Source: Candidatus Brocadiia bacterium (GTDB lineage: Bacteria > Planctomycetota > Brocadiia > CAIUPP01). From it: a stretch of 64,000 nt of DNA. Under the pieces are notes generated by a model, which saw nothing but the letters and a program-made list of their open reading frames with translations, was not told the DNA's origin and made no database searches. Each line of letters starts with the position of its first letter. Positions within the stretch are counted from its first letter, which is position 1. The translations under genes were made by a program, and so were the position numbers. Shown piece by piece: positions 22,664 to 30,939 of this stretch. Where the stretch lies: NCBI GenBank assembly GCA_052139675.1, contig JBKQWE010000026.1:2703-66702 (forward strand). The letters run 5' to 3'.

Positions 22664-23209
22664 TCACCCCGCGGCCTTTTTCTCGGCCGCCTTCGCGCGG
22701 TACTTCGCCAGCAGCACCGGCACCTGCTCGGGCGTCATGCGGCCGTGGACCTCGTTGTCCACCATCACGACGGGCGCAAGGCCGCAGGTGCCCAGGCAGC
22801 GGGCGGCTTCGAGGGTGAACATGCCGTCCTTGCTCGTCTCGCCGAAGTCCACGCCCAGTTCTGCCTTGAGGCGCGCCGCGATCTCGCTGCCGCCCTTGAC
22901 GTAGCACGCGGTGCCGAGGCATGCATTGATGATGAATTTGCCCGAGGGCCGCAGGCGGAAGAAATGATAGAAACTCGCGACACCCGTCACTTTCGCCGTC
23001 GGTATCTGCAGGAGTTGCGCGACGGCGTCCATCTGCGCGCGGCCGAGGTAGCCGAAGTGCCCCTGCACTTTGTGCAGCACGCTGATCAACTGGCTCTTCG
23101 GTTCGGGGCCGCGGAGCACCTCCTCAATGTACTTGACGATGGGCTCCGGCAGCGCAGCGCGGCTGACTTTTTCGACCTGGCGCCGGTTATCGGTCGAGCT
23201 CTTGATCAT
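22664..23209 (-). CDS. NuoE-like [2Fe-2S] thioredoxin-fold subunit of the hydrogenase (HydC/HndA-type)
   Basis: CxxxxC...CxxxC pattern (NACLGTACYVKG ... CLGTCGLAPVVMV) typical of NuoE / 24-kDa subunits. 4-nt overlap with hydA. Confidence 0.75.
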   Translation of the reverse strand: MIKSSTDNRRQVEKVSRAALPEPIVKYIEEVLRGPEPKSQLISVLHKVQGHFGYLGRAQMDAVAQLLQIPTAKVTGVASFYHFFRLRPSGKFIINACLGTACYVKGGSEIAARLKAELGVDFGETSKDGMFTLEAARCLGTCGLAPVVMVDNEVHGRMTPEQVPVLLAKYRAKAAEKKAAG

Positions 23210-24966
23210 CGGATCCCTCGTGGCAGTTTGGCCGAATAAGTGGTGTGCAGCAGTTCGCGCGCCTTCGGGGAGAAAACTTCGCCGAGGAACTCGCTGTAAA
23301 GCTGCTGGACGGCCGGGTTCTCATGGGAGCGCCGCAAGGTCTTGGCGCCGTCAATCGCGTAGAGCGCACGGGCGCGCGCGGCGAGCAGCGCCGGGTCGAG
23401 CGCCTTCACGCCGCGCGGCGGATAGGGCTGGCCGCCGCCGCCGATGCAGCCGCCGGGGCAGGCCATGAGCTCGATCATGTGGAACTGCTTCTCGCCGCGG
23501 AGGACTTCGTCGAGGATCGTCTTCGCGTTGGTCAGGCCGTTGGCCACGCCGACGCGCAGAAGCTGGTCGCCGATCGCGACGGTTTCCTCGCGAAGCCCTT
23601 CGACCGCGCGGACCTCCTTGAATTCCACCCGGTGCCCGGGCTTGCCGGTGGTGAGTTCCACGGCGGTGCGGAGCGTGGCCTCCATCACGCCGCCGGTGGT
23701 GCCGAAGATGTCCCCCGCGCCGGTGGCGATGCCCAGCGGCGCGTCGAATTCGCCGTCGGGCAAATGGACGAAATCAATGCCGTAGGACTTGATCATCCAG
23801 ATCAGTTCGCGCGTGGTCAGGACGGCGTCGGTATAGGGAACGCCCTGGGCGAAATAGTGCTCGGGCCGGCGCGACTCGTACTTCTTCGCCACGCACGGCA
23901 TGACCGCGACGACGTAGATGTTCGCCGGGTCCAGCCCGGCCTTCTGCGCGTAGTAGGTCTTGATCAGCGCCGACAGCATCATCATCGGCGAGCGGCAGCT
24001 CGAGGCGTTCGGGATCAGCTCGGGATAGAATTTCTCGAGGAAGTTGACCCAGCCGGGCGAGCAGCTCGTCAGCATCGGCAGCGGGCCTTCGCCCTTGAGC
24101 CGGCGGAGGAACTCGTGCGCCTCCTCGACGATCGTCAGGTCGGCGGCCAGGTCGGTGTCGAACACGCGGTCCACGCCGAGCCGCCGCAGCGCCGTGACCA
24201 GCTTGCCGGTGGCCGGCGTGCCCGGCGGCAGCTCGAAACCTTCGCCGACGGCCGCGCGGATCGAGGGCGCGGTCTGGACGACGACGTGCTTCTTCGGGTC
24301 CGCGATGGCCGCGAACACCTCTTCCGTGGCGCGCTTCTCCAGGAACGCCGCGGTCGGGCAGACGTTGATGCACTGCCCGCACTGGATGCAGACCGAGTCG
24401 CGCATCGTGGAGCCGTGCGCGGGCGTGACGACGGCGGAGAAACCGCGCCAGTGGCGGCTGAGGTTGTACACGCCCTGGACTTCGGCGCACACGCGCGTGC
24501 ACCGGCCGCAGAGGACGCACTTCTCGGAATCGCGCACCACCGAGTCGCTCTCGTCCTCGATCGCGAAGCGCTTGCGCTCGCCCTCGAAGAGCCGCTCGCG
24601 GACGCCGAACGCGTAGGCCAGGTTCTGCAGCTCGCAGTTGCCGTCGCGCTCGCAGGTCTGGCAGTCCTTCGGGTGGTTGTCGAGCAGCAGCTCGACGATG
24701 TCGCGCCGCGCCTGCCGGATCTCGGGCGAATTGGTCTGGACGATCATCCCTTCCCAGACCGTCGAGCTGCACGCGGCCATGTAGAAGCCCATGTCCTTCA
24801 CGTCCACGATGCAGACGCGGCATCCGCCGGCCAGGCTCAGGTCGGGATGGTAGCAGAGGCGCGGGATGTGAATCCCCAGCGTCTCGGCCGCCTCCATGAT
24901 CGTGGTGCCTTCCTTGACGGAGATCTTCTGGTCGTCCAGAGTCAGCGAGATCATTTTCTTGCTCAT
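23206..24966 (-). CDS. hydA: [FeFe]-hydrogenase catalytic subunit (M3-type: [2Fe-2S] + His-ligated [4Fe-4S] + 2x[4Fe-4S] ferredoxin + H-cluster domain)
   Basis: True start is ATG 24966 (MSKKMISLTL) with a GGGAGTGG ribosome-binding site. The 301-codon upstream extension in the track is a shadow ORF. H-cluster motifs L2 VMPCVAKKYE and L3 ELMACPGGCIGGGGQP are intact. L1 reads TSCSPGW rather than TSCCPxW. Confidence 0.8.
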   Translation of the reverse strand: MSKKMISLTLDDQKISVKEGTTIMEAAETLGIHIPRLCYHPDLSLAGGCRVCIVDVKDMGFYMAACSSTVWEGMIVQTNSPEIRQARRDIVELLLDNHPKDCQTCERDGNCELQNLAYAFGVRERLFEGERKRFAIEDESDSVVRDSEKCVLCGRCTRVCAEVQGVYNLSRHWRGFSAVVTPAHGSTMRDSVCIQCGQCINVCPTAAFLEKRATEEVFAAIADPKKHVVVQTAPSIRAAVGEGFELPPGTPATGKLVTALRRLGVDRVFDTDLAADLTIVEEAHEFLRRLKGEGPLPMLTSCSPGWVNFLEKFYPELIPNASSCRSPMMMLSALIKTYYAQKAGLDPANIYVVAVMPCVAKKYESRRPEHYFAQGVPYTDAVLTTRELIWMIKSYGIDFVHLPDGEFDAPLGIATGAGDIFGTTGGVMEATLRTAVELTTGKPGHRVEFKEVRAVEGLREETVAIGDQLLRVGVANGLTNAKTILDEVLRGEKQFHMIELMACPGGCIGGGGQPYPPRGVKALDPALLAARARALYAIDGAKTLRRSHENPAVQQLYSEFLGEVFSPKARELLHTTYSAKLPRGIR

Positions 24967-24998
24967 CGTTCCACTCCCAAAGCAGCAACGGCTCGTTG

Positions 24999-27017
24999 CT
25001 ACCCGCGGCGCAGACCCGCGCATTTCCCGGCGGGGCAGCGTTTCTCGACGACGTGCGCGACGTATTCGTCCCGGTAGTGCGTCAGCGTGCTGAGGATCGG
25101 GTTGGGCGCGTTGCGGCCAAGACCGCAGAGGCTGGCCTTGCGCATCAGCTTCGCCAGCCGCTCGAGCCGCTCGATGTCCTCCGGCCGGCCCTGGCCGGCG
25201 GTGATGCGCTGGAGGATTTCCAGCATGCGCTTGGTCCCTTCGCGGCAGGGCGTGCACTTGCCGCACGATTCGTCCTGCGAGAACGTCAGGAAGTATTTCG
25301 CGATGTCCACCATGCAGTCGTCCTCGTCCATCACGATCATGCCGCCGGAGCCCATGATGGCCCCGACCTTGGCGAGCGAATCGTAGTCCACCGGCGTATC
25401 GAGCAGTCTCTCCGGCACGCAGCCGCCGGCGGGGCCGCCGGTCTGGACGGCCTTCAGCCGCTTGCCGTTCGGCGCGCCGCCGCCGATGTCCACAACGATC
25501 TCGCGCAGCGTCGTCCCGATCGGCACCTCGACCAGCCCTGTATGCTCGACCTTCCCGGCCAGCGCGAAGGCCTTCGTCCCGCCGCTGTTCGCCGTGCCGA
25601 TGCGGCTGAACCAGTCGGCGCCGTAATAGATGATCGCGCCGATGTTCGCCAGCGTCTCGACGTTGTTGATGACCGTCGGCTTGCCCCACAGGCCGCTCTG
25701 CGTCGGATAGGGCGGGCGGATGCGCGGCTCGCCGCGCTCGCCCTCGATCGAGTGGATCAGCGAGGTCTCCTCGCCGCAGACGAACGCGCCGGCGCCCAGG
25801 CGGATTTCGAGGTCGAAGCTGAAATCCGATCCGAAGATCTTCGCCCCGAGGACGCCGTGCTTGCGGCACTGGTCAATGGCGTTCTGGACGCGCTGGATCG
25901 CCATCGGGTACTCGGCGCGGATGTAGAAAAACCCGCGCTGCGCGCCGATAGCGTAGCCGCCGATGATCATCCCCTCGATCACGCTGAACGGGTCGCCCTC
26001 GAGCATGCTGCGGTCCATGAACGCGCCCGGGTCGCCCTCGTCGGCGTTGCAGATGATGTAGCGCACCGGCTCCTTCGCCGCGGCGGCCATCTGCCACTTC
26101 TGCCCGGTGGGATAGCCCGCGCCGCCGCGCCCGCGCAATTTCGAGCGCGCGATCTCGCCGATCACCCACTTCGGGTCGCCCTTCTCCAGCACCTTCGCCA
26201 GCGAATGGAAGCCCTTGTAATGGACGTACTCGAAGATGTTGTCCGGGTCAATCACGCCGCTGTTGCGCAGCGAAATGCGGCACTGGCGGTTGAAGAACGC
26301 CACGTCGCCGTACAGGTTGAAAAACCGCTGGCTGAGCGTGTGCCCCTTCAGCCGCAGGCGCTCGACCGGCTTGTTCGCCAGCACGTGGCTGGCGACGATC
26401 TCGTCGAGGTCCTTCTCGTCGGCGATGCGGTACAGGATGCGGCTCGGCAGGACGAGCAGGTGCGTGACCTTCCCCGATTCCTGGGCCCCGCAGAGTCCGA
26501 AGCAGCCGGCGGACAGGACGGCGCAGTGGCTCTCGTCGAGCCCGGCGGCGCGGAGTTTCTTCATCAGGAGGCTGCTGAAGTTCTGCTCCAGGCTTCGCCC
26601 GCAGCGCTGGCCGGAGCAGAAGAGGAATTCCTGCAGCGGCAGCGCCTCGGCGGAGCTGTCGAGCACGTGGTCGAGCCGCGGCTTGCCGCCGAGGATGTGG
26701 TCGGTGAAAATATCGTGGACGGCGTCGCGGTCCACGCGCTGGTATTTCACCGGGATCTGGCCGGGCATCAGAACGCGGACGATCGGCTCGCAACTGCACC
26801 GGCCGGTGCAGCCGGTCTGCCGCACGACGATATCCTGTCGGCCGGACGTGGCGATGTGCTTGCGGAATTCCGCCAGAACCTCCGCCGCGCCGGAGGCGTT
26901 CTCGCACGTCGCCGAGCCGACCGAGATGCGGATTTTCGTCGCATCCTCGCGCGCCGCCAGAGAGCGCTCGGCCTCGTCGGCGAACTTCTGGTACTGCGTC
27001 GCGATTGGGCTGTCCAT
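24999..27017 (-). CDS. NuoF-like NAD(P)H-binding flavoprotein subunit of the hydrogenase (HydB/HndC-type) with N-terminal thioredoxin-like [2Fe-2S] domains
   Basis: GRGGAGYPTGQKW (FMN/NADH site), ESCGKCTPCREG ([4Fe-4S]), and N-terminal Cys clusters. Confidence 0.8.
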   Translation of the reverse strand: MDSPIATQYQKFADEAERSLAAREDATKIRISVGSATCENASGAAEVLAEFRKHIATSGRQDIVVRQTGCTGRCSCEPIVRVLMPGQIPVKYQRVDRDAVHDIFTDHILGGKPRLDHVLDSSAEALPLQEFLFCSGQRCGRSLEQNFSSLLMKKLRAAGLDESHCAVLSAGCFGLCGAQESGKVTHLLVLPSRILYRIADEKDLDEIVASHVLANKPVERLRLKGHTLSQRFFNLYGDVAFFNRQCRISLRNSGVIDPDNIFEYVHYKGFHSLAKVLEKGDPKWVIGEIARSKLRGRGGAGYPTGQKWQMAAAAKEPVRYIICNADEGDPGAFMDRSMLEGDPFSVIEGMIIGGYAIGAQRGFFYIRAEYPMAIQRVQNAIDQCRKHGVLGAKIFGSDFSFDLEIRLGAGAFVCGEETSLIHSIEGERGEPRIRPPYPTQSGLWGKPTVINNVETLANIGAIIYYGADWFSRIGTANSGGTKAFALAGKVEHTGLVEVPIGTTLREIVVDIGGGAPNGKRLKAVQTGGPAGGCVPERLLDTPVDYDSLAKVGAIMGSGGMIVMDEDDCMVDIAKYFLTFSQDESCGKCTPCREGTKRMLEILQRITAGQGRPEDIERLERLAKLMRKASLCGLGRNAPNPILSTLTHYRDEYVAHVVEKRCPAGKCAGLRRG

Positions 27018-27315
27018 GGGCGTTCCTCAAGGCAATCAGAAACGGACCGGCGGGCCTGCGCTCTGCAAGGGGCGAGTTTCCCGGCCACCATCGGGTTGCG
27101 GAATTATATACCGGAACCCGGCGGTCGCGCAACACTGGATACTCGCGCGTCGGCGCTCCGCGGCCTCCCGGATTAGCGGCTATGGCAGGGGACTGCTCTT
27201 AAATTGAAGACGGTTATTGTTCTCTCCGCAAGCGGCCTTCAGTTACCGCCGGAATTACCCTTTGAAGTAACCGCTTGCAAAATGGCATACGTGGGTCATA
27301 AATCGAGTAGTCGCA

Positions 27316-28485
27316 TCAAATCGCGGCAAAAACTCCCGCCGCTCCCAAAATCGCCATGGGCTTCGGGTTTAAGAGAAGCATAAGCTCGTGCGTATGCCTA
27401 CGAGCGTTCCGGCCCGCTTCCGCGTGCACATGATCGCCTCTGCCGCCGAGCGTACTGAACTTGCTTTTGACAGGCTGTGTTGTAACGTAGAAGTACTTCT
27501 GCGATACCTCGCGCACCTTCTTGCCGGATAACCCGTTAGAGCAGTCATGGTCAGGGAAAGTCAGGATGGCTCTGGCACCGCGTGCTGCAATGGTGAGAAG
27601 TAAATCGTCCAAAGCGTTTGAGGACTCGCTGGTCACACTATACTTCGACCGAGGCCGCCGCGCTGGTTCTGGGTAGCGGCCGGCACCAGACACTTCGCCG
27701 CATTCACCTCGCGAAATCGTCTCCAAGACATGGTAGAAACGGCTGTAGTGAACGCCAGAATACGGTGGATCAATGAACACCAAGTCGTCATGAAGAAGTT
27801 CTTTAACTGCATCGTTCGCGTCGGCCACCTGCGCCTCGCCGCGGCAAAGCGCAAACTGGTTCGCCAATGAGTCAAAGGCGACACGGGTTTTGAATACAAT
27901 ATCCTTGTTCCATGCCTCTTGGAGGAATCTCCTCGCTGTCCGGGTCGGCTGGAAGGGCTGTGCTGTATGGCCGGGTGCGGCGGCGCATTGGCTCGCGGCT
28001 TGGATCAAAGCAGCTAGCGCAACCGTTTTGCCAGGTTCACCAGTGGGCAGGCTGCTCCTCAGCGCGTCTATCCAAACGGTCTGTTTCGGACTGTAATAGT
28101 GGCCACCGTAGGCTCTCGTTACAGGGAGGTGTGATTGTCCCATACTCCAAAGACGACAATCGGCAACGACGGCCCGGGTAAGCTTTACAGGAGCGGGAGA
28201 CCGTGTGGCACTACAAACGCTCACTGCACGGCGGTGCCACTCATACCAAATGGGCTCACCTTCGAGCTTCATCTGCCGATGCAAAACCGCGCCAGCGAGA
28301 ACGGTGCTGTAGCGCTGCAAGTCATAGGCGAGAACGGGTATGGAAAACTGACGTGCCACATGAATCGCAACGACACCTGATCCAGAGAACAAGTCCACGA
28401 AGCGCCGAGCATAAGGAGCTTGTCGGCCTAGCAGTTCGCCCAGGCCATTCTGTAACATTGCTCGCTTTGATCCCATGTACTTCAT
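27316..28485 (-). CDS. D12-class N6-adenine DNA methyltransferase (Dam-like)
   Basis: Start ATG 28485 (MKYMGSKRAM). Motifs YMGSK (D12 motif), FVDLFSGSGVV (SAM-binding FxGxG), LVFIDPPY (catalytic DPPY). 4-nt ATGA overlap with the upstream gene. Confidence 0.8.
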   Translation of the reverse strand: MKYMGSKRAMLQNGLGELLGRQAPYARRFVDLFSGSGVVAIHVARQFSIPVLAYDLQRYSTVLAGAVLHRQMKLEGEPIWYEWHRRAVSVCSATRSPAPVKLTRAVVADCRLWSMGQSHLPVTRAYGGHYYSPKQTVWIDALRSSLPTGEPGKTVALAALIQAASQCAAAPGHTAQPFQPTRTARRFLQEAWNKDIVFKTRVAFDSLANQFALCRGEAQVADANDAVKELLHDDLVFIDPPYSGVHYSRFYHVLETISRGECGEVSGAGRYPEPARRPRSKYSVTSESSNALDDLLLTIAARGARAILTFPDHDCSNGLSGKKVREVSQKYFYVTTQPVKSKFSTLGGRGDHVHAEAGRNARRHTHELMLLLNPKPMAILGAAGVFAAI

Positions 28486-28487
28486 GG

Positions 28488-29345
28488 TCAGTTCTTGAGC
28501 ACTTCGAGCCCGCCGTGTTCTGTAATTTGAAAATCGACGATACCGCTCACCCAAGTTGGGTTTCTATGCACGTTCCAAAAGCGACTACTTTGCACCAGAA
28601 TTTCGTCTAGGAACTTCCGGAACCTAACGATCCGATGATAAGCAACAACTTGAACATTGTCCAAATCAGGAAACTTGTTCGGCTTCGGTATCGGTGGCAC
28701 GGTGAAATCAATCTCCGAGATGCGTTGCACCCTGATTTTCAAACTCTCCACGTCGAGTACGCGAAAAGCGGGGTAAGGGAACAGATGGTCAACGTAGTTG
28801 GCACGGTCACGGTGCCCGACGTCGGAACAATCGTCAGGCTGCTGCGCTTTCTCATTCCTTGTAAACAGCGGGTCAGTTGCGAAATGACTGTCACTCTTCA
28901 CCTCGCGCCAATACAGGCAATGTTCTCTATCGCCAGCATTCTTAGTCCCGAAAGTGCAAACATGTTTGCCGCATTGCAAGCCTAGTCGGACGATGCGCCT
29001 ACGCCGGTGGAGATGAAAGCAACCGAGCAAATGTGCAATTGCTCGTACTGCGTAATGGCTGGAATAGTAACCCACACTCGAAGCCCAGAGTGGGCTGGCT
29101 TCCGTCAACGCTGCCGAGATCAAGAAGCTATGGACAGCGCGCAGCCAAATGTCGACAGCAGCGGTTGCGTACAGTGACGCTACCTCTGGCCGAACTGTGA
29201 CCGCAGGGTTCGCCTTCGGCGGCATGACTTGTTCCAAGGCCGTTGAGAGCGAAGCCGCTGGCGGGAAAGCATATTGAGCACGGCGGTTGTTCAGCGGCTT
29301 AAACGCTACCTGCAAGCGTGTCTGAAGCCCTCGGTCGATAGTCAT
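28488..29345 (-). CDS. hypothetical protein (possible His-Me-finger / HNH-like nuclease; speculative)
   Basis: No family recognised. Contains Cys/His-rich CFHLHRRRRIVRLGLQCGKHVC and a VDHLFP...N...H stretch reminiscent of DUF1524/HNH cores. Low G+C. 4-nt overlaps with both neighbours. Confidence 0.5.
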   Translation of the reverse strand: MTIDRGLQTRLQVAFKPLNNRRAQYAFPPAASLSTALEQVMPPKANPAVTVRPEVASLYATAAVDIWLRAVHSFLISAALTEASPLWASSVGYYSSHYAVRAIAHLLGCFHLHRRRRIVRLGLQCGKHVCTFGTKNAGDREHCLYWREVKSDSHFATDPLFTRNEKAQQPDDCSDVGHRDRANYVDHLFPYPAFRVLDVESLKIRVQRISEIDFTVPPIPKPNKFPDLDNVQVVAYHRIVRFRKFLDEILVQSSRFWNVHRNPTWVSGIVDFQITEHGGLEVLKN

Positions 29346-30718
29346 ATCGATCCCAACTCGCGCCGAACGTGAATTCTGTGCTTCACGGCAAGGGTTGCCC
29401 GCGCGTCAGGATCGAGTTTAGAGACATCTTGAGTGCCTACAACAGACGCCCAGAGCGTGTCTCGAAAACGCGCTAATCCGCCGCTCCCTAAAAAGCCTTT
29501 ATCCTTAAACTTCTTTTTCGCCACAAAACGACCGCCATCGACCAAGCCAGCCCGCGCCATAACTTCGCGAAGCCACTTAATAAGAATTCCCTTAGACGCA
29601 TCAGAAACCAGCGGCTGCTTCGCACTTTTGAGTTTCCAGATGCAGGCGGGCAAGAGCGTGAGGAATGTTACCACTACACGACCTTGATAGGCCACGTTAT
29701 CCGGGTCCAATTCTTCGCTATCGGCCAAGTCTTCCTTGCGTCCCGTCGCGTCCAACCATCCGTCCAGGCATTGGGCCAGGAATTCTGCCTGCGCCTCGAG
29801 ACTCGATACCCCTTCGTCGAATAAATCGTCGAGCACGTCCTCAATTGCAGAATTTAAAGTGGCTAGAGTCACGACATCCTTCACCCCGAACTTGATGCCA
29901 GGTATCTGGATCATGCCAACAAGCGGACCAATTTCGAGCATCAGCTTGCGTCCAAGGTCCTGAGCCCGTTCTTTGTTGTCTAGTGGCCCTCTTGCACCGC
30001 GTGCCGTCGGGAACAAGTCTGCGACCAAGGACCGATCCACTTTCTTCTGATAGAAGTTAACGTCAATGAATATTTGCGCTTGCCTACGAGGCGGGTCTTT
30101 GGGTTGATCGAGGTCGCGAAATATCTCCGCAGGAATTTCCCAAATAGCAGATGGCTGCGATTCCTTAAGCATCATAATTGCAAAGTACGCTCCGTTGATG
30201 CGATGTTGGCCGTCGATCACAGAAAAATTCAGCTCTGCGTCATTCTCATCGAACGTTAATGTCGCCGCGCCGTGTTCTCTTTGGATTCGGAATTCTTCCA
30301 ACCTCGCGCCGTTCACGTGGAGTAAGACATTTGAGAATGTCGGATACTCACTTCTCTGGTACCCTATAACATTACTGATTTTCGGCGGCCATTCTCTGCC
30401 GGACTCGTTCTTTTTAGGCTCGTAGATTTCACGAAAGCATTTATCCAGTTTCTTGGGCGCGTCAACGACCTCCTGTTGCAACAGGTAAGCCGCGATCTGT
30501 GCAACCCGCTTCCAGTCCAACGATCGTTGGATGCTGCGCACCTTCACTGGATTCCGATGTGGCGAATGCGGTTTTCCAGGCCACCACGTCATGAGCTTCT
30601 CTACGTTCAAAGCGCAGAGGCAGTGTTTCGCTTCGTGCAATTCCTTTGGTGCAAATGGATTAGCTGGCACAATGACGGAAATCCTGTGAATTCCATCAGA
30701 GTTTTCCGATGATGTCAT
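29342..30718 (-). CDS. DGQHR-domain protein (DndB/DpdB-like ParB/Srx-fold)
   Basis: Exact FSVIDGQHRINGAYFA motif. Size about 458 aa, as in DndB-like proteins. First gene of the overlapping trio. Confidence 0.7.
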   Translation of the reverse strand: MTSSENSDGIHRISVIVPANPFAPKELHEAKHCLCALNVEKLMTWWPGKPHSPHRNPVKVRSIQRSLDWKRVAQIAAYLLQQEVVDAPKKLDKCFREIYEPKKNESGREWPPKISNVIGYQRSEYPTFSNVLLHVNGARLEEFRIQREHGAATLTFDENDAELNFSVIDGQHRINGAYFAIMMLKESQPSAIWEIPAEIFRDLDQPKDPPRRQAQIFIDVNFYQKKVDRSLVADLFPTARGARGPLDNKERAQDLGRKLMLEIGPLVGMIQIPGIKFGVKDVVTLATLNSAIEDVLDDLFDEGVSSLEAQAEFLAQCLDGWLDATGRKEDLADSEELDPDNVAYQGRVVVTFLTLLPACIWKLKSAKQPLVSDASKGILIKWLREVMARAGLVDGGRFVAKKKFKDKGFLGSGGLARFRDTLWASVVGTQDVSKLDPDARATLAVKHRIHVRRELGSI

Positions 30719-30939
30719 ACGGTGACTCCTAATTCCGACAATCCCCGGCGACTAAATCCGGGTCGGCATGTTCAAATCTCTTCGGCCCGAGAGACGCGAA
30801 GCGGGCGACGCCGTCCTAACGCGCTGCTCTTTGCTGTACCTCGCTTCCCGTCTTGTCGGACTACAGCCGTCTTGCCAAGGCAGAATCTATCGGCCCACAG
30901 TCGCGTTGTCAAGGAAAATAACGACATCCTTCGGCCCCA

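Follow-up and report, generated by a model that had tools for sequence, protein, structure and literature searches.

The hydrogenase locus examined here raises the question of how an H-cluster is held when the first active-site motif (L1) of an [FeFe]-hydrogenase reads TSCSPGW, with a serine where a cysteine normally ligates the [4Fe-4S]H subcluster, and whether an additional cysteine a short distance downstream has taken over as ligand. The locus lies in a 64,000-nucleotide stretch of DNA from a Candidatus Brocadiia bacterium (contig JBKQWE010000026.1), and this whole stretch is referred to below as the window. All positions are those of the window, and the features are collected in Table 1.

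Table 1. Genes, motifs and residues of the hydrogenase locus and of the adjoining low-GC island
Feature	Position	Strand	Description
hydC	22664..23209	-	181-aa NuoE-like thioredoxin-like [2Fe-2S] subunit; PF01257, 2e-48
hydA	23206..24966	-	586-aa group A [FeFe]-hydrogenase catalytic subunit
L3 motif ELMACPGGCIGGGGQP	23425..23472	-	Cys503 ligand; Cys507 bridges to the 2Fe subsite; invariant in homolog alignment
L2 motif MPCVAKKYE	23875..23901	-	Cys358 ligand, Lys361; invariant in homolog alignment
SSCRSP (aa 322-327)	23986..24003	-	Ser322 = proton-pathway Ser (CpI S319)
Cys324	23995..23997	-	'extra' Cys, common non-ligand group A residue; 21 residues after Ser303
L1 motif TSCSPGW (aa 300-306)	24049..24069	-	codons ACG AGC TGC TCG CCC GGC TGG
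Ser303 (TCG)	24058..24060	-	in place of the [4Fe-4S]H-ligating Cys; phmmer alignment to CpI, T. kivui and A. woodii
Cys302	24061..24063	-	proton-relay Cys; phmmer alignment to CpI C299, T. kivui C298, A. woodii C300
hydB	24999..27017	-	672-aa NuoF-like FMN/NAD(H) subunit; two N-terminal thioredoxin-like 2Fe-2S-type regions
Methyltransferase gene	27316..28554		D12-class N6-adenine DNA methyltransferase; low-GC island
285-aa protein gene	28488..29345		no Pfam match; low-GC island
DndB-like gene	29342..30718		DndB-like/DGQHR protein; low-GC island

Identity and organisation of the hydrogenase genes

The hydA gene, the NuoF-like hydB and the NuoE-like hydC are adjacent and all on the minus strand, from position 22664 to 27017. 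The gene order is hydB-hydA-hydC, unlike the hydC-hydB-hydA order of Thermotoga. The start of hydA is an ATG at 24966 with GGGAG upstream, and a mechanically called ORF of 887 aa overshoots this start because of the high GC content. The hydB stop and the hydA start are separated by 32 nt, while the hydA stop and the hydC start overlap at 23206..23209 (ATGA), an overlap that suggests translational coupling.

Profile searches confirmed that the gene encodes a genuine HydA. The domain order was an N-terminal 2Fe-2S domain, a NuoG-type 4Fe-4S domain, a 2x4Fe-4S domain, the H-domain and a small-subunit-like tail, with Pfam matches to Fer2_4, NADH-G_4Fe-4S_3, Fer4, Fe_hyd_lg_C (1.7e-91) and Fe_hyd_SSU; the H-domain profiles PF02906 and PF02256 scored 306.7 and 76.3 bits, respectively, both above curated cutoffs. 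HydA also scored 496.5 bits against the group A profile TIGR02512 (cutoff 405.95) and 810.5 bits against NF040763, 'NADH-dependent [FeFe] hydrogenase, group A6' (cutoff 765), matching profile positions 1-571 of 571. It was 100% identical to an NCBI protein of a Candidatus Brocadiia MAG which is already named NADH-dependent group A6 [FeFe] hydrogenase.

A phmmer search against all PDB chains gave Thermoanaerobacter kivui HydA1 as the best match (E 1.3e-174), followed by Acetobacterium woodii HydA1 (7Q4V, 7Q4W and 8A5E; E 1.8e-170), and the predicted fold of HydA is already fixed by sequence identity to these solved structures. The T. kivui enzyme (8A6T, 8BEW) has the same domain architecture, as has A. 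woodii HydA1 (583 aa against 586 aa), which belongs to the electron-bifurcating HydABC(D) complex.

Active-site motifs and register

Both the coordinates and the translation of the L1 motif TSCSPGW were reproduced, together with SSCRSP downstream and intact L2 and L3 motifs. The strict form of L1, TSCCPxW with both cysteines, is not matched by HydA, while its L2 and L3 agree with MPCxxKxxE and ExMxCxxGCxxG, respectively. In the phmmer alignments, which were gapless through the region, Ser303 stood opposite Cys300 of Clostridium pasteurianum CpI, Cys299 of T. kivui and Ser301 of A. woodii. Because Cys302 and Ser303 align with CpI Cys299 and Cys300, it is the ligand cysteine that has been substituted and the relay cysteine that has been retained. 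A register shift or misalignment was ruled out, since the alignments to CpI, T. kivui and A. woodii contain no gap from L1 to L2; the earlier note had placed the substitution at the [4Fe-4S]H ligand position, and an off-by-one error in that assignment is excluded.

The proton pathway was also kept, with C302, E282, S322, E285 and R289 of HydA corresponding in the gapless alignment to C299, E279, S319, E282 and R286 of CpI, and E285, R289, C302 and S322 were invariant in the homolog alignment. With every part of the proton-transfer pathway conserved, a sensory role, raised as a possibility in the earlier note, is unlikely. CpI (3C8Y, 4XDC) and Desulfovibrio DdH/DvH (1HFE, 6SG2) share the H-domain, L2, L3 and the proton pathway with HydA; unlike HydA, they have canonical TSCCP and are ferredoxin- or cytochrome-linked and not associated with NuoF/NuoE subunits.

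Distribution of the serine variant

The serine variant is common and already known. In A. woodii HydA1, whose FTIR signatures and activity are normal, Ser301 stands in for the cluster-ligating cysteine (Katsyv et al. 2023, PMC10021017). Kertess et al. [quoted passage not shown] TSCSPGW had also been remarked on in an earlier metagenomic paper (PMC3787301), and literature searches on TSCSP and group A6 returned incidental mentions only. The motif is therefore not novel: A. woodii HydA1 is a TSCSP enzyme of established, normal activity, which is the outcome that the earlier note had named as making this a known variant.

Serine at the ligand position and cysteine 21 residues later (+21) were found together in all 115 parsable sequences among the best 120 close homologs, taken at 70% identity or more. 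A wider sample consisted of 100 H-domains with intact L2 and L3, drawn from a 50%-identity representative library. The ligand position was Cys in 88 and Ser in 12 of these representatives, and no residue other than Cys or Ser (Ala, Gly and Thr included) occurred there in the 100 sequences with intact L2/L3. On a neighbour-joining tree of the representatives, with Cys as the root state, Fitch parsimony required about 11 changes between Cys and Ser. Most of 80 loci collected from GTDB species genomes carried serine, although the search pattern allowed both S and C and fixed PGW, so that the proportions are biased; TSCSPGW was present in at least eight phyla in this set (Planctomycetota, Hydrogenedentota, Verrucomicrobiota, Chlorobiota, Bacillota, Armatimonadota, Desulfobacterota, Bacteroidota and others). 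The serine codons were TCN in 53 cases and AGY in 29, two families that are each one step from the Cys codons TGY and two steps from each other. The use of both families agrees with repeated change between Ser and Cys under selection for one or other of these two residues.

Strict TSCCP is an invalid exclusion criterion for a functional HydA, because A. woodii HydA1 and about 12-20% of family members deviate from it as well. The proposal that TSCSP is a hallmark of group B was rejected, as group B2 is defined by TSCCCP.

Two HydA genes occurred in one locus in four cases (L047, L058, L037 and L008). Both copies were of the Ser type in L047, L058 and L037, and in L047 and L058 the +21 residue was Cys in one copy and Ala in the other. 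In L008, one copy was canonical TSCCPGW with +21 Cys and the other was Ser-type with Ala. L047 and L058 each contained two kinds of NuoF-like partner, one of the bifurcating type (F/PGAFMDR) and one of the non-bifurcating type (Y/PGTFKDR). These arrangements indicate that the Ser variant is not tied to one coupling mode. The representative library also contained a 4122-aa protein (P0121) with seven stretches matching HydA (1836 bits), which is a giant fusion of several H-domains or else an artefact of assembly or gene calling.

Ligation of the H-cluster

The protein is probably an ordinary, catalytically competent group A [FeFe]-hydrogenase of the HydABC type with a Ser-type L1, in which the Ser303 oxygen would most likely coordinate a cubane iron. 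In this arrangement, Ser303 would take the place in the backbone that the fourth [4Fe-4S]H ligand normally has, and its oxygen would most likely replace the thiolate on the cubane iron, as was modelled by cryo-EM for A. woodii Ser301. The other ligands (Cys358, Cys503 and the bridging Cys507) would be unchanged, as would the relay Cys302 and the proton-pathway residues Glu282, Ser322, Glu285 and Arg289, so that catalysis would otherwise be canonical. A. woodii HydA1 has the identical TSCSPGW, SSCKSP in place of SSCRSP, and the same L2/L3. The transfer of its model to the Brocadiia HydA is drawn from 46-50% identity and identical local sequence, and the direct evidence for Fe-O(Ser) coordination is a medium-resolution cryo-EM model from that other organism. 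The suggestion that cluster ligation is altered would accordingly hold, with serine as the ligand in the way that Katsyv et al. modelled it for A. woodii HydA1 (PMC10021017).

The same exchange gave a different outcome when engineered. CrHydA1 C115S lost most of its [4Fe-4S] occupancy and activity, with poor cluster occupancy and less than 1 unit of activity (PMC5855289), in contrast to the active natural A. woodii HydA1, which implies that serine works only in some protein contexts. No H-domain position co-varying with the serine passed Bonferroni correction among the 100 representatives. The best local co-variation was Gly305 of TSCSPGW (11/12 against 34/88, p ~1e-3), a difference that is confounded by phylogeny.

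It is improbable that Cys302 shifts to ligate the cubane, with loss or rerouting of the canonical proton relay and altered or sensory-like catalysis as the consequence. Kertess et al. proposed Cys114 as a possible alternative ligand in CrHydA1 C115A (PMC5855289), which lends this arrangement a precedent. However, the H-cluster of A. woodii HydABC has canonical FTIR states and the enzyme is active in both directions (PMC10021017), and the relay cysteine and the full Glu/Ser/Glu/Arg pathway are conserved across Ser-type sequences. Moreover, only Ser replaces the Cys, and Ala or Gly never does, which points to use of the side chain itself.

Takeover by Cys324 of SSCRSP as the fourth thiolate ligand, compensating for the change from Cys to Ser, is very improbable. 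The joint presence of Ser303 and Cys324 in every parsable close homolog would agree with it, as would the presence of both residues in A. woodii HydA1 and the failure of the C115S exchange alone in CrHydA1, which is without the +21 Cys (PMC5855289). The +21 Cys had looked unusual because it is absent from CpI and from T. kivui HydA1, where L1 is canonical TSCCPSW and the downstream motif is STARSP, with Ala at +21. The observation concerning CpI stands, but the proposed link to the serine change does not: +21 Cys was present in 9 of the 12 Ser-type and 50 of the 88 canonical representatives (Fisher p = 0.35), so the two positions are uncoupled, and it is the commonest residue at this position in canonical TSCCP enzymes. 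The Desulfovibrio periplasmic enzyme has normal four-Cys ligation. Its high-resolution structures (1HFE, 1E08, 6SG2 and 8RTG among others) read FTSCCPGW...HFSTCKSP and so combine canonical TSCCP with the +21 Cys that is shared with the Brocadiia HydA. Conversely, Ala was found at +21 in 3 of the 12 Ser-type representatives with L2/L3 intact (P0123, P0187, P0235) and in six Ser-type genome loci (L041, L055, L056, L059, L047 and L058). These loci include Phascolarctobacterium (L056, L059) and Mailhella (L055), and most adjoin a bifurcating-type HydB. Katsyv et al. also modelled the serine, and not the +21 Cys, as the ligand (PMC10021017). A ligand swap to Cys324 was thus rejected on three grounds: the representative contingency table and tree, the canonical structures with +21 Cys and the natural Ser-plus-Ala sequences. 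From these sequence comparisons, Cys324 is best regarded as a bystander inherited from the wider subfamily.

A sequencing or assembly error, a pseudogene or an inactive paralogue, for which the non-canonical motif and some Melainabacteria TSCSPGW paralogues that also lack the L3 Cys could speak, is almost certainly not the explanation, since a Cys codon could be reached from TCG only by two substitutions, as the earlier note had stated, HydA copies that are 99-100% identical occur in independent NCBI, ENA and JGI assemblies, the serine is constant among the parsable homologs, and the ORF, L2 and L3 are intact with hydB and hydC in the operon.

HydB and electron bifurcation

The best PDB match of HydB was A. 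woodii HydB (E 1e-201), with an alignment from residue 6 to residue 540 of 599. The Brocadiia HydB ends in KRCPAGKCAGLRRG followed by the stop codon (C-terminus near 24999..25010) and is without a C-terminal 2x[4Fe-4S] ferredoxin-like domain, whereas this domain is present in all solved bifurcating HydB proteins, that of A. woodii included. Five relatives (L001, L003, L004, L006 and L083) continue past the end of HydB with CxxCxxCxxxCP motifs; the domain is kept in the 82% relative L083 (3672-5855) and in the 60-71% relatives L001 (4648-6900), L003 and L004. A 96%-identical relative (L081/L082), assembled independently, has a likewise truncated HydB of 671 aa, and the spacer behind it is 218 nt long in place of 32 nt. 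Since L081/L082 share the loss while L083, L001, L003 and L004 keep the domain, the loss is recent and lineage-specific. The domain is the proposed ferredoxin site (PMC10021017), and for this reason bifurcation may have been lost or rerouted in the Brocadiia complex.

Signatures of bifurcating HydB proteins have been given as A/E and M in PGxFxDR, Phe in GAGAxxCGEE, and GGPSG (Losey 2020, PMC7311640). The Brocadiia HydB matches the first two with PGAFMDR and GAGAFVCGEE and departs from the third with GGPAGG, as do L001 and L003, whereas A. woodii HydB keeps GGPSGG. The non-bifurcating signature (T/S, K/S/A and Tyr near the FMN) was not found, the corresponding residues being A, M and F. The 'bifurcating-type' label of the earlier note is in agreement with the closeness to A. 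woodii HydB and with PGAFMDR/GAGAF, but the missing C-terminal 2x[4Fe-4S] domain makes it doubtful.

The non-bifurcating, NADH-dependent S. wolfei Hyd1ABC and S. aciditrophicus HydAB (PMC7311640) also have a NuoF-like partner, and it is to this class that the NCBI name 'NADH-dependent, group A6' points. The Brocadiia HydB is likewise without C-terminal Fer4 motifs; it differs from that clade, which has the T/S, K/S/A and Tyr residues, in its PGAFMDR and GAGAF.

A further reading is that the serine ligand is not neutral but tunes [4Fe-4S]H adaptively, through a shift in its potential or in the bias of catalysis. With the ferredoxin-site domain of HydB only just lost, the complex would then have been caught becoming NADH-only or using another docking for ferredoxin or flavodoxin. 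We consider this speculative and rather unlikely.

At its other end, HydB carries an N-terminal extension of about 128 aa that is absent from A. woodii HydB (aa 1-128; 26634..27017, minus strand). Cysteines C38, C70, C74 and C76 of the extension form a second pattern of the thioredoxin-like [2Fe-2S] type upstream of the usual CxxxxC...CxxxC, and aa 44-112 gave a weak NCBIfam match to a 2Fe-2S ferredoxin.

Low-GC island upstream of hydB

Directly upstream of hydB lies a low-GC island (27200..30800) with a GC content of 0.51-0.58, against 0.64-0.69 in the flanks. It carries the three genes listed at the end of Table 1 and is missing from the corresponding position in the 96% relative L081. The island probably arrived by horizontal transfer, as a module for DNA modification or defence.

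Significance

The discovery value of the Ser-for-Cys ligand is small, as structural and spectroscopic work on A. woodii HydABC has already described it and its frequency of about one in five has been published. For the family, functional HydA proteins should not be screened by requiring TSCCP, and a Cys at +21 is no sign of a compensating ligand. Serine supports the H-cluster in natural backgrounds and fails in CrHydA1 C115S, a contrast that concerns the field more than this locus. For the Brocadiia lineage, the C-terminal domain that HydB has recently lost offers a modest starting point for work on which parts of HydABC bifurcation requires.
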